Origin: an uncultured Candidatus Saccharibacteria bacterium
Lineage (GTDB): Bacteria > Patescibacteriota > Minisyncoccia > UBA6257 > UBA11618
Assembly (NCBI GenBank): GCA_964432405.1
Contig: CAYSNH010000001.1
Location: 497 to 64,496 of the forward strand
Reading direction: 5' to 3'
Length of the DNA: 64,000 nucleotides
Below are positions 3,143 to 35,094 of this stretch, piece after piece (the first letter of the stretch is position 1; the number at the start of each line of letters is the position of its first letter). The notes beneath the pieces were generated by a model. It was not told the origin of the DNA. It made no database searches and saw only the letters and a program-made list of their open reading frames with translations. The position numbers and the translations under genes are program-made.

Positions 3143-4594
3143 TTGAATAAACAAGGAGGAACTCTAATTATTGGCGCCGGTCCAGCCGGTCTCGCTGCTG
3201 CCAGCGAACTAGCTCAAGCCAAAAAAAACTTGGCAGTTATTGAAAAAGACGACCAAGTAGGTGGTTTAGCTAAAACTTATATTTTCCAGGAAGGGGAGTT
3301 TATATTTCGAACCGACAATGGCCCTCATCGCTTCTTCTCTAAAAATCCTTATCTCTATAAATTTATCTCCAAACTCCTTCAGGAACAGTGGCTAGAAGTC
3401 CCTCGTCAAACCCGCCAATATATCGCCGGCAAGTTCTACGACTACCCTGTTCGCCCTCTCCAAGCTCTTGCTAACATCGGCCCTCTCAAAGCCCTTAATT
3501 TTATATACCTCTACTCCATCGCCCAGATTCAATACAAGCTACTCAAAAAACCTATTAAAAATTTTGAGGATTATATTATCGCTCACTTTGGTAAAGGATT
3601 GGGTCGTTTCAATATGATCAACTACACCGAAAAGATCTGGGGCGTACCAGCTAACACTATTCATGCTGATTGGGCCAAGCAAAGGATCAAAGGCCTTAGT
3701 ATCGGATTATTAATCAAAGCCGCTCTCAAGAACCTACTCCAACCCTTTAAGACTAAACAGGTTAGAACCTTGGTAGATGTCTTCTATTATCCAGAATATG
3801 GCACTGGTCTTATTTATGAAAAAATAAAAGAGGAGTTGATTGATCAGGGTCATCAGATCCACACCAAAGCCTATCCAACCGCTATTCATCATAACAACAA
3901 TAGAATCGATAGGGTTGTGGTAAGTAATTGTGGCATAGAAGAGGTCTATGAACCTGATTACCTAATAGAATCAATTCCCATCGAAAGCTTTCTTCAACTC
4001 CTTAATCCCGCTCCACCTGCCGAAATCCAACAAGCTGCTAATAAAGTGAAGTATCGCCATCAGGTCTATCTATTCATCACTCTAGATAGAGATCAGGTCA
4101 CTCGTGACCAATGGATCTATTTTCCAGAAACCAATATTCCTTTTGGTCGCATTAGTGAGATGAAAAACTTTAGTCAAAAAATGAGCCCCTTAGGCAAAAC
4201 CTCTTTATTTGTCGAGTTCTTTTGTTTCAAAAATGATCATATCTGGAATAAATCTAAAGAGGAGTTATTAGCACTCACTATGAAATATCTTGAATCTTGG
4301 GGTTTTTGCCAAAGATCTGAGGTAATGGGCTGTCATTTGATAAAACAGGAGAAGGTCTATCCTATCTACGACACCAACTATCAAGATTACTTATCAATTA
4401 TCAAAAACTATCTCAACCAATTTTCCAATCTATTCTATATCGGTCGACCTGGTCGCTTTCGTTACACCAATCAAGATCACTCTCTTGAAATGGGCATGTT
4501 AGCTGCCAGAAGCATTATCGACAACCAGCGGTATAATATAGATGATGTAGGTAAAGAACAGGAATATTATGAACGAGGCATCTGGAAGAAATAA
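3143..4594 (+). CDS. FAD/NAD(P)-binding oxidoreductase (amine-oxidase/UDP-galactopyranose-mutase-like fold)
   Basis: N-terminal Rossmann dinucleotide motif LIIGAGPAGLAAA…EKDDQVGG. The start is uncertain: the track uses TTG at 3143, but an AAGGAGG at 3157 followed by ATT could mark a later start. Confidence 0.6.
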   Translation: MNKQGGTLIIGAGPAGLAAASELAQAKKNLAVIEKDDQVGGLAKTYIFQEGEFIFRTDNGPHRFFSKNPYLYKFISKLLQEQWLEVPRQTRQYIAGKFYDYPVRPLQALANIGPLKALNFIYLYSIAQIQYKLLKKPIKNFEDYIIAHFGKGLGRFNMINYTEKIWGVPANTIHADWAKQRIKGLSIGLLIKAALKNLLQPFKTKQVRTLVDVFYYPEYGTGLIYEKIKEELIDQGHQIHTKAYPTAIHHNNNRIDRVVVSNCGIEEVYEPDYLIESIPIESFLQLLNPAPPAEIQQAANKVKYRHQVYLFITLDRDQVTRDQWIYFPETNIPFGRISEMKNFSQKMSPLGKTSLFVEFFCFKNDHIWNKSKEELLALTMKYLESWGFCQRSEVMGCHLIKQEKVYPIYDTNYQDYLSIIKNYLNQFSNLFYIGRPGRFRYTNQDHSLEMGMLAARSIIDNQRYNIDDVGKEQEYYERGIWKK

Positions 4595-4970
4595 TCTAAG
4601 TTTATTCTATTATTACGTCATTTTTGCTGGCATCGCTACGCTAGTGGACTTATCAATCCTCTACTCTCTCACTGAGTTTGGTAATGTGTGGTATTTTCAC
4701 TCCGCTATTATTGGTTATTCTGCTGGCATGATAGTTAACTATGTACTCAACAAGTATTTCAATTTCAAAAACTACAGTAAAAGAATAATCTCTCAATTTG
4801 GCATCTTTACTGCCGTAGCAATAGTGGGATTAGGCCTCAACCAGCTTATCATCTACCTCCTAGTGGAGTTTGCTGATATCTGGTACATGGCTGCCAAAAT
4901 CATTGCTATCGGCATCGTGATGTTCTGGAGTTTTTTTGGTCACAAACAATTAACTTTCAAGCATGAGTAA
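4569..4970 (+). CDS. GtrA-family polysaccharide-synthesis membrane protein
   Basis: About 130 aa with 4 TM helices and a typical GtrA layout (YxxVGxxxxxVxxxxxY-like N-terminus). Confidence 0.6.
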   Translation: MNEASGRNNLSLFYYYVIFAGIATLVDLSILYSLTEFGNVWYFHSAIIGYSAGMIVNYVLNKYFNFKNYSKRIISQFGIFTAVAIVGLGLNQLIIYLLVEFADIWYMAAKIIAIGIVMFWSFFGHKQLTFKHE

Positions 4971-5778
4971 GCCAGATTTCATTGGTCTTGGAGCAATGAA
5001 GACTGGAACCACCTGGCTCCATCAATGCCTCTTAGAACATCCAGAAATAAACTTAGCTGAAAAAGAGTTGAATTTTTTTGGTGATCCAGCCACCTGGTCT
5101 AAAGGTTTTGATTGGTATGAAAAAAAACTTGAAAGCGATAAAAAAATAACAGGGGAGTTTTCGGTTTTTTATCTCGCCCACCCTTTTGTAGCTTCCAGAA
5201 TTCATGAGCGCTATCCAAATACTAAATTAATAGCCTGCCTACGCAACCCAATCGATCGCTCCTTCTCTCACTACCTACATGATCTTAGGTATGGTATTTT
5301 TGATCAATCGCTAAGTTTTGGTGAAGCAATCAAGAAATTCCCTTATCTCATAGAAGAATCCCGCTACTCCGTCTTTATTAAAGAGTATTTGAAATACTTC
5401 TCATCTCAACAGATATTACTCCTTATCTATGAAGACTCCCTACAAAACCCTCTTCAATATATTCAGTTGGTTTATAGGTTCTTAGGAGTTGATGATCAAT
5501 TTATTCCTCCCAGTCTTCACAAAAAAATTCATCCTAGCTACAAGCCCCACTTTAATTTATTAGAAAAATTCATCTATCGCAGATCTTTTATACGTCTTGT
5601 TAAAAAATATTGGTTGAGCAGAAAACTCGGCCGAGCAACCAGCCAGTTATTATTCAAGCTTAATAAAAAGCCTGCTGAGCTTTTAGATAGTGATAAAAAA
5701 ACTTTGGAAATATATTTTCAGTCAGAAATTAAAGAATTAGAAAAAATGATCGATCGCCCGCTCACACAATGGTTATAA
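4963..5778 (+). CDS. Sulfotransferase family protein
   Basis: 5'-PSB motif PDFIGLGAMKTGTTWL and 3'-PB motif LIACLRNPIDRSFSHY, the canonical PAPS-binding signatures of the sulfotransferase fold. Confidence 0.8.
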   Translation: MSKPDFIGLGAMKTGTTWLHQCLLEHPEINLAEKELNFFGDPATWSKGFDWYEKKLESDKKITGEFSVFYLAHPFVASRIHERYPNTKLIACLRNPIDRSFSHYLHDLRYGIFDQSLSFGEAIKKFPYLIEESRYSVFIKEYLKYFSSQQILLLIYEDSLQNPLQYIQLVYRFLGVDDQFIPPSLHKKIHPSYKPHFNLLEKFIYRRSFIRLVKKYWLSRKLGRATSQLLFKLNKKPAELLDSDKKTLEIYFQSEIKELEKMIDRPLTQWL

Positions 5779-33672: not shown

Positions 33673-33678
33673 AAATAT

Positions 33679-35094
33679 ATGATTTCAGCCTTAAACATTA
33701 AGAACAAAGCCCCCTTATTATATTTTTTACTGATCCTTTTAGCAACTCCGTGGCAACTTAATTTATTTCTCAAACTATCTTTTTGGACCTTTTCACTATA
33801 TCTGTATTTTGTTTTAAAAGAAAAAACTGAAAAAAAGAGCTTTATTAATCAATGGCTTATATTACCACCATTAGTCATTGTCCTAATCACTAGAATCATT
33901 CCTTTTTTTAAATGGCCAGTAATGCCTTTAGGGGCAGACTCATTTACTTACAAGAAGATATTTGCCAACTGCTTACAAAACCCCTGTGCTGAAAAGATAT
34001 CTATTATTTCTAACTCACTGCAGTTTTTGGAATGGCACTCTCCCGCTCTATTATCTTTATTTTATATTTTAATTAACATTCTCATTGGCCTAGCTCTTTT
34101 TATCACAGTTAAAAGCTACTTCGACAAAAAAGCCGCTTACGCCAGCCTTCTTCTATTTTCTATCTCTACCACTCAATTTCTAGCCTACTGGGCCTTCTAC
34201 TGGAAATTAATGCTAGCTATAGCTCTAACCCTATCCACCCTATACTTACTCAATAAAAAATCCTGGCTAGTTATTCCTTTGGCTGGAATAATTGGAATCA
34301 TTCATCCCGCTGCTCTTTTATTTTTAATAACTGCCATCATCATCAGTTTGATTATAGGTGGTGACAGAAAATACCTGTCTCTTAGTGCCCTTGGCATCTT
34401 GCTATTAACCCTGGCGACTAATTATCAAGAGACCACTGGCCTTATCTCCGACTACATCCACAACTCCTCCCAAAAAGATTTAGCAGATAATGCTGAGTTG
34501 ACTGGTAGTTTTATTAATTTTGAAATCTATAAAAAACTCGCCCTCGCCTATCTATCTTTTGCGGCCTTAGGATTAATAAGAGTTATAAAAGAAAGAAATG
34601 CTTATCCCTTGGCTTTTTTTCTCAGCGCCCTTGCTCTCTCCCTACCAGTCCTATACTTTCACAGTCGATTTATTATCTTCTTAGACCTAGCTCTCATCAT
34701 ACTTGCCGCCCCTCTTGTTGCTGAACTTGTTATCAAGCTCTGGCATGGCATAACAGGTAGATTAATTCTAATAGTCATTTTTATCAGCCTCTCCTCTCTA
34801 GTTATCTTTCAGTCTTGGGTCGCTGAGCCATTAATCACCACCACCTCAGAAATTGAAGAATTAAAGACCTTACAAAAAATAGAAGAAGAAGCAGTCATTT
34901 TAATTAACGACCGCCGTTATCTTCCTGTTGTAAAAAGCATGACCAAAAATCCTATTATTTTAGCTGATACAAATAAATATAAACCCCTTTCAAAGCCACT
35001 CTATATATATGTAGGAGAAAGAGGTTCTAGCAACCTATTAAAAACCCTCGATCTGCCATTAATAAAAATAAATCATCATATCTGGAAATATTAA
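33679..35094 (+). CDS. Polytopic membrane protein (candidate GT-C acceptor-side transferase using the polyprenyl-P-sugar)
   Basis: About 12 TM helices with no soluble domains. It is divergent from the GT2 gene with only a 6-bp gap, so its start is uncertain. Confidence 0.3.
   Translation: MISALNIKNKAPLLYFLLILLATPWQLNLFLKLSFWTFSLYLYFVLKEKTEKKSFINQWLILPPLVIVLITRIIPFFKWPVMPLGADSFTYKKIFANCLQNPCAEKISIISNSLQFLEWHSPALLSLFYILINILIGLALFITVKSYFDKKAAYASLLLFSISTTQFLAYWAFYWKLMLAIALTLSTLYLLNKKSWLVIPLAGIIGIIHPAALLFLITAIIISLIIGGDRKYLSLSALGILLLTLATNYQETTGLISDYIHNSSQKDLADNAELTGSFINFEIYKKLALAYLSFAALGLIRVIKERNAYPLAFFLSALALSLPVLYFHSRFIIFLDLALIILAAPLVAELVIKLWHGITGRLILIVIFISLSSLVIFQSWVAEPLITTTSEIEELKTLQKIEEEAVILINDRRYLPVVKSMTKNPIILADTNKYKPLSKPLYIYVGERGSSNLLKTLDLPLIKINHHIWKY

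Follow-up and report, generated by a model that had tools for sequence, protein, structure and literature searches.

The 64,000-nucleotide window analysed here (contig CAYSNH010000001.1 of assembly GCA_964432405.1, positions 497 to 64,496 of the forward strand) comes from an uncultured Candidatus Saccharibacteria bacterium and contains a surface-glycan gene island at 3143–35094, for which 3143–36608 are better bounds. The island consisted of 28 open reading frames (ORFs) packed with overlaps or gaps of less than 105 bp between truB (2441–3088) and a class II ribonucleotide reductase gene (36693–38990), the flanking housekeeping genes, and no housekeeping gene was present among them. The G+C fraction was 0.29–0.36 in the island compared to 0.37–0.41 in the flanks. 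Families were assigned by Pfam and NCBIfam scans of the window ORFs with curated cut-offs, and all larger ORFs were Pfam-scanned. These scans and the ORF map reproduced the gap-poor island and every family named in a first-pass annotation of the same DNA: seven glycosyltransferase family 4 (GT4) domains, a GT2 enzyme beside a DUF2304 protein, a Wzx flippase, a GtrA protein, a family 4 carbohydrate esterase (CE4) and a TylF methyltransferase (the last four by family match), two AsnB amidotransferases, a KpsF isomerase and a fusion of Gfo/Idh/MocA with a D-2-hydroxyacid dehydrogenase (2-HADH), of which both domains were matched. A GT8-like gene and a 2-oxoglutarate (2OG)/Fe(II)-oxygenase-like gene could be added to this list. 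The families, motifs, fusions and conserved gene orders described below were read directly from the DNA; taken together, they are probably those of a composite locus for one or more lipid-carrier-assembled surface glycans that would be sulfated, partly de-N-acetylated, amidated, methylated and decorated with a sugar of the 3-deoxy-D-manno-octulosonate (Kdo) type.

The part of the island designated module A (23603–32661, minus strand) started with the GT4 glycosyltransferase GT4d (31516–32661; Glycos_transf_1, 129 bits), followed by a GT4-sulfotransferase fusion (29531–31552). The GT4 domain of the fusion covered residues 1 to ~390 (30383–31552; 140 bits) and the sulfotransferase (ST) domain ~residues 391–673 (29531–30382). 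Downstream were GT4c (28474–29529), a GT4-type protein with its family match in the C-terminal half only (59 bits), the CE4 polysaccharide N-deacetylase (27705–28538; Polysacc_deac_1, 87 bits), a double GT4 with two complete modules (25426–27702; 303 bits over two stretches) and the amidotransferase AsnB2 (23603–25423; Asn_synthase, 261 bits; TIGR01536, 472 bits against a cut-off of 267). Beyond AsnB2, the same strand carried the tandem paralogues GT4b (22453–23586; 125 bits) and GT4a (21205–22398; 131 bits), which were 60% identical, so that the seven GT4 domains were distributed over six genes. The CE4 protein retained the motifs ITFDDGY, GGHTVNH and WFAYPFG and had the poly-N-acetylglucosamine (PNAG) deacetylases PgaB/IcaB as its nearest characterised relatives (PDB, NCBIfam). 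No signal, membrane or other hydrophobic segment was found in it, as for a cytoplasmic enzyme.

Two sulfotransferase domains with intact binding motifs for the sulfate donor 3'-phosphoadenosine-5'-phosphosulfate (PAPS) had been claimed by the first-pass annotation, and both were recovered by Sulfotransfer_1 well above its gathering cut-off of 22 bits. The fused domain scored 79.6 bits, and the stand-alone sulfotransferase ST1 (4963–5778, plus strand) scored 62.3 bits. ST1 carried GAMKTGTTW as the 5'-phosphosulfate-binding (5'-PSB) loop, LRNPIDRSFS as the 3'-phosphate-binding (3'-PB) motif, and KELNFF, the corresponding motifs of the fused domain being GAQRSGTSW, LRNPVERAFS and KEIHFF. The 5'-PSB lysine was replaced by arginine in the fused domain, and relatives used K or R interchangeably at this position. 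The KEIHFF motif aligned with AEPHFF of 3-OST-3, including the catalytic Glu. The best PDB match of ST1 was 3RNL (4e-28), then heparan-sulfate 3-OST/NDST, while the fused domain matched 3RNL at 1e-24 and 3-OST-3/1 at ~1e-20. For both domains, the order was the bacterial 3RNL, the heparan-sulfate 3-OSTs and then the N-sulfotransferase domain of NDST1. Both are predicted to be PAPS-type carbohydrate sulfotransferases resembling the heparan-sulfate 3-O- and N-sulfotransferases. Fusions of GT4 and sulfotransferase domains occurred in both domain orders elsewhere (P0016, P0017, P0072).

The distribution of this gene set was assessed with a sulfotransferase alignment that was run against a single genome for each GTDB species and returned 179 relatives; the loci of the best 80 were annotated using the window proteins as queries. 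Of these 80, 27 belonged to Patescibacteria metagenome-assembled genomes (MAGs), labelled Saccharibacteria, Kaiserbacteria, Paceibacterota, Harrisonbacteria and Nomurabacteria, and the hosts from outside the Candidate Phyla Radiation (CPR) included Solirubrobacterales, Vicinamibacterales, Planctomycetota, Saprospiraceae and Gammaproteobacteria. A recurring gene order of GT4, GT4, GT4, GT4c, sulfotransferase, CE4 and AsnB was observed, with a GT4c homologue adjoining the sulfotransferase in 36 of the 80 loci. A co-directional CE4 gene followed within 2.5 kb in 31 of the 39 loci whose sulfotransferase was at least 38% identical to that of the window and which had enough downstream sequence, and in none of the 25 loci with more distant sulfotransferases (<38%). 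Among the CPR loci, CE4 followed the sulfotransferase in 15 of 18, and an AsnB gene (39–45% identity) followed the ST-CE4 pair in 10 of 16. The cassette is therefore uncharacterised but not rare, being found across numerous Patescibacteria MAGs and also in several further phyla. The proposal that sulfotransferase-bearing glycan loci are uncommon was thus contradicted for the CPR by the 27 Patescibacteria MAGs and their shared GT4-ST-CE4-AsnB synteny. The companion proposal, that such loci are not characterised in CPR-like genomes, stood in so far as the literature searched yielded no paper on sulfotransferases, or on Kdo, in Patescibacteria, but the loci themselves are widespread there. The ST-CE4(-AsnB) cassette and its spread over phyla seem to be undescribed. 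The coupling of the two genes (31/39 against 0/25) suggests that a hexosamine may be de-N-acetylated in the cytoplasm and that the same residue or its neighbour may then be sulfated; N- and O-linked sulfation are both compatible with the sequence.

The supply of PAPS was considered next to the possibility that the sulfotransferase genes are present while the cell has no sulfated glycan of its own, the enzymes being idle or fed with host-derived PAPS. Adenosine 5'-phosphosulfate (APS) kinase and ATP sulfurylase genes (cysC, sat, cysDN) could not be found in the 64-kb window or in ~6 kb upstream, either by the Pfam scans or with an approximate E. coli CysC query, in agreement with the first-pass annotation. 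The generally reduced metabolism of Patescibacteria also fits such a reading. Against it, both domains keep every PAPS-binding and catalytic motif, as do the orthologues in related strains down to 71–82% overall identity, which argues for purifying selection. The DNA inspected represents only ~6–10% of a typical genome. Moreover, a complete PAPS synthase, a fused ATP-sulfurylase/APS-kinase (14908–16566; Pfam-confirmed), lay 4 kb from ST-CE4 in locus L031, and the Kaiserbacteria locus L033 carried an APS kinase (9047–9781; Pfam-confirmed as APS_kinase) with a second sulfotransferase of the Sulfotransfer_3 family (6269–7153). Since related loci carry PAPS genes, the cassette can be argued to sulfate in fact, including in the CPR. 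Sulfation by the enzymes of the island is predicted from these sequences, and the reading that the cell has no sulfated glycan of its own appears quite improbable.

The second part of the island, module B (12369–21251), contained the Kdo-related genes. A GT8-like glycosyltransferase gene (20397–21251, plus strand; Glyco_transf_8, 26.6 bits against 24.3) was divergent from a gene for a KpsF/GutQ-family arabinose-5-phosphate isomerase with one SIS and two CBS domains (19325–20293, minus strand). The latter protein, confirming the KpsF call, scored 264 bits against a cut-off of 204 with TIGR00393 and remained below the KdsD and GutQ equivalog cut-offs. It was followed, also on the minus strand, by a 701-amino-acid (aa) fusion of a domain termed X (residues 1–459; 17952–19328) with a KdsB (CMP-Kdo synthetase) domain (residues 460–701; 17223–17951), by the amidotransferase AsnB1 (15383–17236; Asn_synthase, 204 bits; TIGR01536, 362 bits against 267), by the 2OG/Fe(II)-oxygenase-like protein (14474–15358) and by the Gfo/Idh/MocA-2-HADH fusion (12369–14477; GFO_IDH_MocA, 88 bits; 2-Hacid_dh_C, 142 bits), a predicted sugar or sugar-acid oxidoreductase. 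Both AsnB proteins of the island started with MCAINGF, with Cys2 as the nucleophile; a sugar carboxylate would be their substrate from the context. The 2OG-like protein had invariant H164-x-D166, H238 and R250 residues, its structural model was poor, and it gave only weak matches, to 2OG hydroxylases. A role as Kdo 3-hydroxylase was considered for it and found no support.

The CMP-Kdo synthetase named in the first-pass annotation proved to be the C-terminal third of the fusion and not a whole gene. It matched CTP_transf_3 at 172 bits, passed the TIGR00466 equivalog cut-off (189 bits against 155) and NF003952 (259 bits against 193), matched only KdsB structures (1.6e-43) and kept the motifs IPAR...S-x-RL, QGDEP, HxGIYAYR, LEQLR and GIDT. 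Activation of the Kdo type was thereby supported by KpsF and the KdsB domain, whereas the other expected enzymes were missing. KdsA (DAHP_synth_1) was absent from the window and ~6 kb upstream by Pfam and an approximate E. coli KdsA query, no KdsC was found in the same stretch and no HAD-family protein in the island, and no island protein matched, in Pfam, the known Kdo-transferase families GT30 (WaaA), GT99 (WbbB), GT107 (KpsC/KpsS) and GT140 (KrkA) (PMC12887879).

Domain X gave no match in Pfam or NCBIfam, either as a single sequence or as a 46-member profile, and none in the PDB as a single sequence; the profile produced only a weak GT28 match there (E 0.013). Structurally, it consisted of two Rossmann-like domains similar to GT-B enzymes. 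Its residues D101, Q227/H228, E308 and R336 were invariant. A profile search of 1.84 billion representative sequences revealed a large family, with no name attached to any representative, of 1905 matches at E ≤ 1e-3, of which 365 were at E ≤ 1e-30. The homologues were mostly stand-alone proteins of 485–500 aa, and no Pfam domain was found in the 46 sampled members. The gene order around family members was KpsF, X, KdsB, 2OG-like, methyltransferase and AsnB in locus L094, KpsF, X and methyltransferase in L095, and KpsF and X in L091. In L096, a GT8 gene, the block X, KdsB, KdsA and a Wzx gene were in succession, with KdsA Pfam-confirmed as DAHP_synth_1. A tblastn search with the approximate query placed KdsA near X also in L107, L108, L122, L131 and L152. 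A metagenome scan provided 56 further X loci; together with the earlier ones, 39 had 4 kb or more of flanking sequence and were counted. Near X, these 39 contained KpsF in 20, KdsB in 10, KdsA in 3, GT8-like genes in 19, AsnB in 19, 2OG-like genes in 12 and Wzx in 26. Among 58 distant loci, 23 had KpsF as the gene immediately upstream of X, and a typical block was GT8, AsnB, KpsF, X, 2OG and Wzx. The GT8-like homologues were 48–60% identical near distant X genes and 80–98% identical in the close relatives L099, L101 and L102, and AsnB1 orthologue-like genes adjoined X and KdsB in L094, L097 and L102. The 2-HADH, epimerase, HAD, CTP_transf_3, Gfo/Idh/MocA and X genes were all separate in L092, and L098 had a separate 2-HADH gene near its X homologue and no Gfo/Idh/MocA gene. 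Since their parts are separate in related loci, the Gfo-2HADH and X-KdsB fusions of the window join genes that neighbour each other elsewhere.

Because its family adjoins KpsF, KdsB and sometimes KdsA elsewhere, domain X is a candidate for a new Kdo transferase. The most economical reading of this genomic context is that X may be the consumer of CMP-Kdo and may represent a family of Kdo transferases not yet described. Neither this family nor its link to CMP-Kdo synthesis, by coupling or by fusion, seems to have been reported before. Alternatively, X may not be a Kdo transferase, and KpsF and X may handle arabinose-5-phosphate or another sugar phosphate in another way; X could then be a GT-B enzyme acting on a sugar-phosphate acceptor, polymerise in the manner of TagF/TarL or work like a 2-epimerase, and the KdsB-like domain would activate an acid sugar other than Kdo, made by the Gfo-2HADH and 2OG enzymes. 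We regard this as unlikely, as the fusion partner of X scores above the KdsB equivalog cut-off and has KdsB active-site motifs, and in L096 KdsA is the immediate neighbour of X-KdsB, with further occurrences in L107, L122, L131 and L152. In E. coli, the kps locus likewise carries kpsF and kpsU next to the Kdo transferases with kdsA elsewhere. A longer X subtype of 530–545 aa (L092, L098) was accompanied by 2-HADH, NAD-epimerase, HAD phosphatase and a divergent CTP_transf_3 protein, and in L098 also by a radical-SAM protein, a TagF-like protein and an FAD/GLF-like protein. These loci may encode a pathway to a different CMP-activated acid sugar.

The remaining genes, designated module C (3143–12363 and 32661–36608), are predicted to serve export and outer decoration. 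The plus-strand genes at the left end encoded a PRK07208-type FAD-dependent oxidoreductase (3143–4594; Amino_oxidase, 2e-17; NF005548, 447 bits against 389) partly resembling UDP-galactopyranose mutase through a weak GLF match, and a GtrA-family small membrane protein (4569–4970; GtrA_DPMS_TM, 86 bits; ~4 hydrophobic segments), a putative polyprenyl-phosphate-sugar flippase. Their pairing was conserved in L051 and L032. ST1 was followed by the TylF-family S-adenosylmethionine-dependent O-methyltransferase (5780–6487; TylF, 70.5 bits against a gathering cut-off of 23), a GT-C-type polytopic glycosyltransferase (6447–8108; PMT_2, a marginal 30.7 bits against 26.1; ~11 hydrophobic segments), a membrane-anchored F5/8 type C (discoidin, carbohydrate-binding) protein (8114–8728; F5_F8_type_C, 43.6 bits; one N-terminal hydrophobic segment), a 631-aa polytopic protein (8740–10635; ~12–13 hydrophobic segments), a 164-aa membrane protein with no family match (10632–11126) and the Wzx-type oligosaccharide flippase (11086–12363; Polysacc_synt, 62 bits against 28). 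The 631-aa protein was conserved in L009, L010 and L093 and is a candidate polymerase, ligase or GT-C.

At the right end, the minus strand encoded a GT2 polyprenyl-phosphate sugar synthase (PpgS/AglJ/ArnC-like; 33010–33672; Glycos_transf_2, 82 bits) with its DUF2304 small membrane partner (32661–33008; 67 bits; three hydrophobic segments). The best NCBIfam matches of the GT2 protein, all below cut-off, were PpgS (101 bits against 370), AglJ, PgfS, a Dol-P-hexose transferase and ArnC. The plus strand encoded a 471-aa polytopic membrane protein with no family match (33679–35094), a candidate GT-C partner or polymerase. The GT2 and 471-aa genes are divergent and only 7 bp apart (33672/33679), and their promoters must therefore lie in coding sequence. 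Two further plus-strand genes followed: a 95-aa membrane protein (35096–35383; DUF1616, 27.5 bits, below the cut-off of 31.6), probably an island member, and a 417-aa membrane-anchored protein with no family match and a run of ~10–11 glycines (35355–36608), which could be a surface protein or glycosylation target at the island edge. The GT2/DUF2304 pair, GtrA and the PMT_2 GT-C fit a lipid-phosphate sugar that would be made inside and transferred outside the membrane. Three or more GT-C-like polytopic proteins had been listed in the first-pass annotation, and one could be supported by its PMT_2 match, but the 631-aa and 471-aa proteins matched no family. These two were examined as members of known families and rejected, having no Pfam or NCBIfam match and sharing no similarity between themselves or with the PMT_2 protein; a polymerase could be hidden among them.

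No Wzy or Wzz could be recognised in the window, and this observation also bears on a protein O-glycosylation system, in which the PMT_2 GT-C or another polytopic protein would put the Wzx-flipped oligosaccharide on surface proteins; possible targets are type IV pilins, the glycine-rich anchored protein and an S-layer protein. The PMT_2 match itself, the two polytopic proteins without a family, the anchored protein at 35355–36608 and the pilin genes ~10 kb away are compatible with such a system. Set against these, the PMT_2 match is marginal, the window scans gave no PglB, PglL/Wzy_C or STT3 match, and proximity is the sole link to the pilus, which together make O-glycosylation a rather unlikely function of the island.

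For the preferred composite locus, the following pathway is proposed. The GT4 enzymes of module A, the module of backbone synthesis and modification, would assemble an oligosaccharide at the cytoplasmic face, CE4 would de-N-acetylate a hexosamine, the fused heparan-sulfate-type sulfotransferase would use PAPS to sulfate the deacetylated residue or its neighbour, and AsnB2 would amidate a sugar carboxylate. In module B, KpsF would provide arabinose-5-phosphate, the KdsB domain would make CMP-Kdo, the fused GT-B domain X would pass Kdo directly to the growing glycan, and the other enzymes would modify the acid sugar. In module C, Wzx would flip the unit, GT2/DUF2304 would make a polyprenyl-phosphate sugar that GtrA flips and the GT-C adds outside the membrane, and a second sulfate would come from ST1 and O-methylation from TylF. 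The sulfation, methylation, CMP-Kdo-type activation and amidation predicted by the first-pass annotation are in line with the families and motifs found, and the chemistry of the product is deduced from these; the substrates, the order of the steps, the role of X as Kdo transferase and the service of all modules to one polymer are likewise inferred.

Several observations weigh against this pathway. The 64-kb window lacks KdsA, KdsC, APS kinase, ATP sulfurylase and any initiating phosphoglycosyl transferase, so that the supply of Kdo and PAPS would depend on the remaining genome or a host. No match to Wzy_C, Wzz, Bac_transf or Glycos_transf_4 (MraY/WecA) was obtained in the window. The top structural matches of domain X were generic, 8 of the 11 long distant loci with KpsF and X had no KdsA and no KdsB within ~10 kb, and the Gfo-2HADH fusion and the 2OG-like protein have roles that the pathway does not explain. 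Finally, the sulfotransferase and X occurred together in only 1 of the 39 metagenome loci, and modules A and B, being usually found apart, may serve different glycans.

The last point leads to the possibility of two or three independent adjacent systems: a sulfated, partly de-N-acetylated, amidated, GT4-built glycan, a Kdo glycan or linker, and a GtrA/GT2/GT-C decoration. Module A was found without module B in most genome loci, 38 of the 39 metagenome loci had module B but neither sulfotransferase nor CE4, each of the two modules has its own AsnB paralogue, and the strand switches at module borders. On the other hand, the island has only one Wzx, and its genes are closely spaced, with none for housekeeping in between. 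Both modules were also present in the Harrisonbacteria locus L020 (ST, CE4, GT4c, AsnB, GT2, 2OG, methyltransferase, Wzx, GT8, KpsF and X), and L116 showed a looser, partial combination, in which a more distant sulfotransferase and TylF lay beside the Kdo module with X and CE4 was absent. One product is favoured by the presence of just one Wzx and by the dense gene packing. Two products form a rival reading of real weight, and separate systems are judged doubtful but not remote. The combination of sulfation, methylation and Kdo had been called unusual, and this held for the joint occurrence, since outside the lineage both modules were found together only in L020 and, loosely, in L116, but not for the sulfotransferase cassette, which is common by itself.

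Comparison with close relatives revealed a variable locus. The same locus was assembled in several marine metagenomes, and the island-adjacent ribonucleotide reductase clustered at ≥90% with NCBI HCX45386.1 ('Patescibacteria group bacterium'), which originates from a mesopelagic contig of Tara Oceans station 037 in the 0.1–0.22 µm size fraction. The nearest relative among GTDB representatives was the UBA11618 genome with locus L051 (Patescibacteria), in which the trio of FAD oxidoreductase, GtrA and sulfotransferase was 87/96/66% identical. The exact species was missing from the GTDB representatives, the scan of which gave 59% identity for its best sulfotransferase match. The ribonucleotide reductase cluster and this trio back the label 'CPR-like' given to the genome beforehand. 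Small proteins with DUF5652 and DUF5676, which we take to be typical of CPR genomes, were encoded upstream of the locus. The GT4a/GT4b tandem pair (21205–23586, minus strand) corresponded in L001 and L093 to just one GT4 gene, of 385 or 380 aa, a duplication or deletion at the strain level within the island. AsnB1 was missing between KdsB and the 2OG-like gene in L093 and L099–L101, where the X domain was 74–93% identical, while L102 had AsnB1 located elsewhere and lacked the Gfo-2HADH gene. The first 35 nt of AsnB1 (15383–17236) and AsnB2 (23603–25423) were near-identical and the proteins diverged further on, which suggests recombination or gene conversion at the AsnB 5' end. Gene content that differs between strains and G+C content below that of the flanks form the pattern of surface-antigen loci, and the variation among close relatives is microdiversity typical of such loci.

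Other features of the window were also noted. A type IV pilus operon (~45636–53656, minus strand) encoded PilB (MshEN + T2SSE), PilC, several N_methyl pilins and a 506-aa PilM-like protein. It begins 10.5 kb past the island, in accordance with the ~10 kb stated in the first-pass annotation; the link to the pilus or to host attachment that had been drawn from this distance has no basis other than proximity and is not upheld. A response-regulator gene (53717–54139) adjoined a complete 16S rRNA gene (54183–55669, minus strand). The 16S gene was isolated, with no adjacent 23S, 5S or tRNA gene and zero tRNAs in the window, and the rRNA genes are therefore unlinked. A class I release factor gene (56578–57330, plus strand) started directly after the L31 gene (56308–56577) and encoded only 250 aa. 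Its PCRF match began at profile position 98, the PET and GGQ motifs were kept, and the predicted protein looks like RF1 without the N-terminal domain.

The island was compared with known glycan systems. The E. coli group 2 capsule kps system (KpsF, KpsU, KpsC, KpsS) resembles it in having its own isomerase and CMP-Kdo synthetase beside the presumed transferase, with KdsA and KdsC encoded outside the glycan locus. Unlike kps, the island has no Capsule_synth (GT107) protein, no KpsMT ABC transporter and no KpsED, its candidate transferase belongs to an unrelated GT-B family fused to KdsB, and its export is apparently Wzx-based. In the mycobacterial system of PpgS (Rv3631), Rv3632 and the GT-C Rv3779, which decorates arabinogalactan with galactosamine, a GT2 likewise stands beside a small DUF2304 membrane protein together with polytopic proteins; the GT2 score of the island was far under the PpgS cut-off. 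Domain X shares with GT30, GT99, GT107 and GT140 a GT-B-like build of two Rossmann domains and the genetic coupling to CMP-Kdo synthesis (PMC12887879), but differs from all four in sequence.

The sulfotransferases are homologous to those of the animal NDST/3-OST enzymes (E 1e-9 to 1e-21), with conserved PSB loop, 3'-PB motif and catalytic Glu, and the tight coupling of a hexosamine N-deacetylase to a sulfotransferase is common to the cassette and NDST. In the island, in contrast, deacetylase and sulfotransferase are separate genes and not one Golgi protein, the acceptor would be a lipid-linked bacterial oligosaccharide, and the sequences score nearer to 3-OST than to the N-sulfotransferase domain. 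Known bacterial clusters for sulfated polysaccharides include xss of Synechocystis, producing synechan (PMC8205485), the sulfated capsules of Vibrio and Cobetia (PMC11641403, PMC11766843) and wps-1 of Actinoplanes, where the heparan-sulfate-type sulfotransferase WpsH stands beside a methyltransferase (PMC13390465). These are, like the island, Wzx-type exopolysaccharide or capsule loci with embedded PAPS-type sulfotransferases. The island differs from them in its GT4-sulfotransferase fusion, the CE4 coupling, the Kdo module and the ultra-small Patescibacteria host.

With the sulfotransferase cassette being common in CPR MAGs, the island is less exceptional than the first-pass annotation held, and domain X makes it richer than that account. 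If the predictions fail, the locus would be one more variable surface-polysaccharide island. Patescibacteria have no lipopolysaccharide (LPS) or outer membrane, they live attached to hosts, and their surface chemistry is almost wholly uncharacterised. For these LPS-less organisms, the island predicts an anionic glycan with sulfate and a Kdo-type acid sugar, and the joint presence of the sulfotransferase cassette and the X/CMP-Kdo coupling in an LPS-less ultra-small bacterium seems to be undescribed. That domain X founds a new Kdo-transferase family and that the CE4-sulfotransferase pair is a bacterial counterpart of NDST, both at once, is a tentative proposal that we hold more in doubt than in favour. 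If true, LPS-less ultra-small bacteria would use X, from a family that numbers at least 365 cluster representatives at E ≤ 1e-30 and has genetic links to CMP-Kdo synthesis, to place Kdo in a surface glycan, and the X-KdsB fusion could channel the labile CMP-Kdo straight to the transferase. The CE4-sulfotransferase pair would make an N-sulfated or glucosamine-directed O-sulfated hexosamine as the counterpart of animal NDST, giving a heparan-like motif on episymbiotic bacteria and on members of several other phyla, and the cross-phylum deacetylase-sulfotransferase cassette may be a source of enzymes for heparin-like sulfated sugars.

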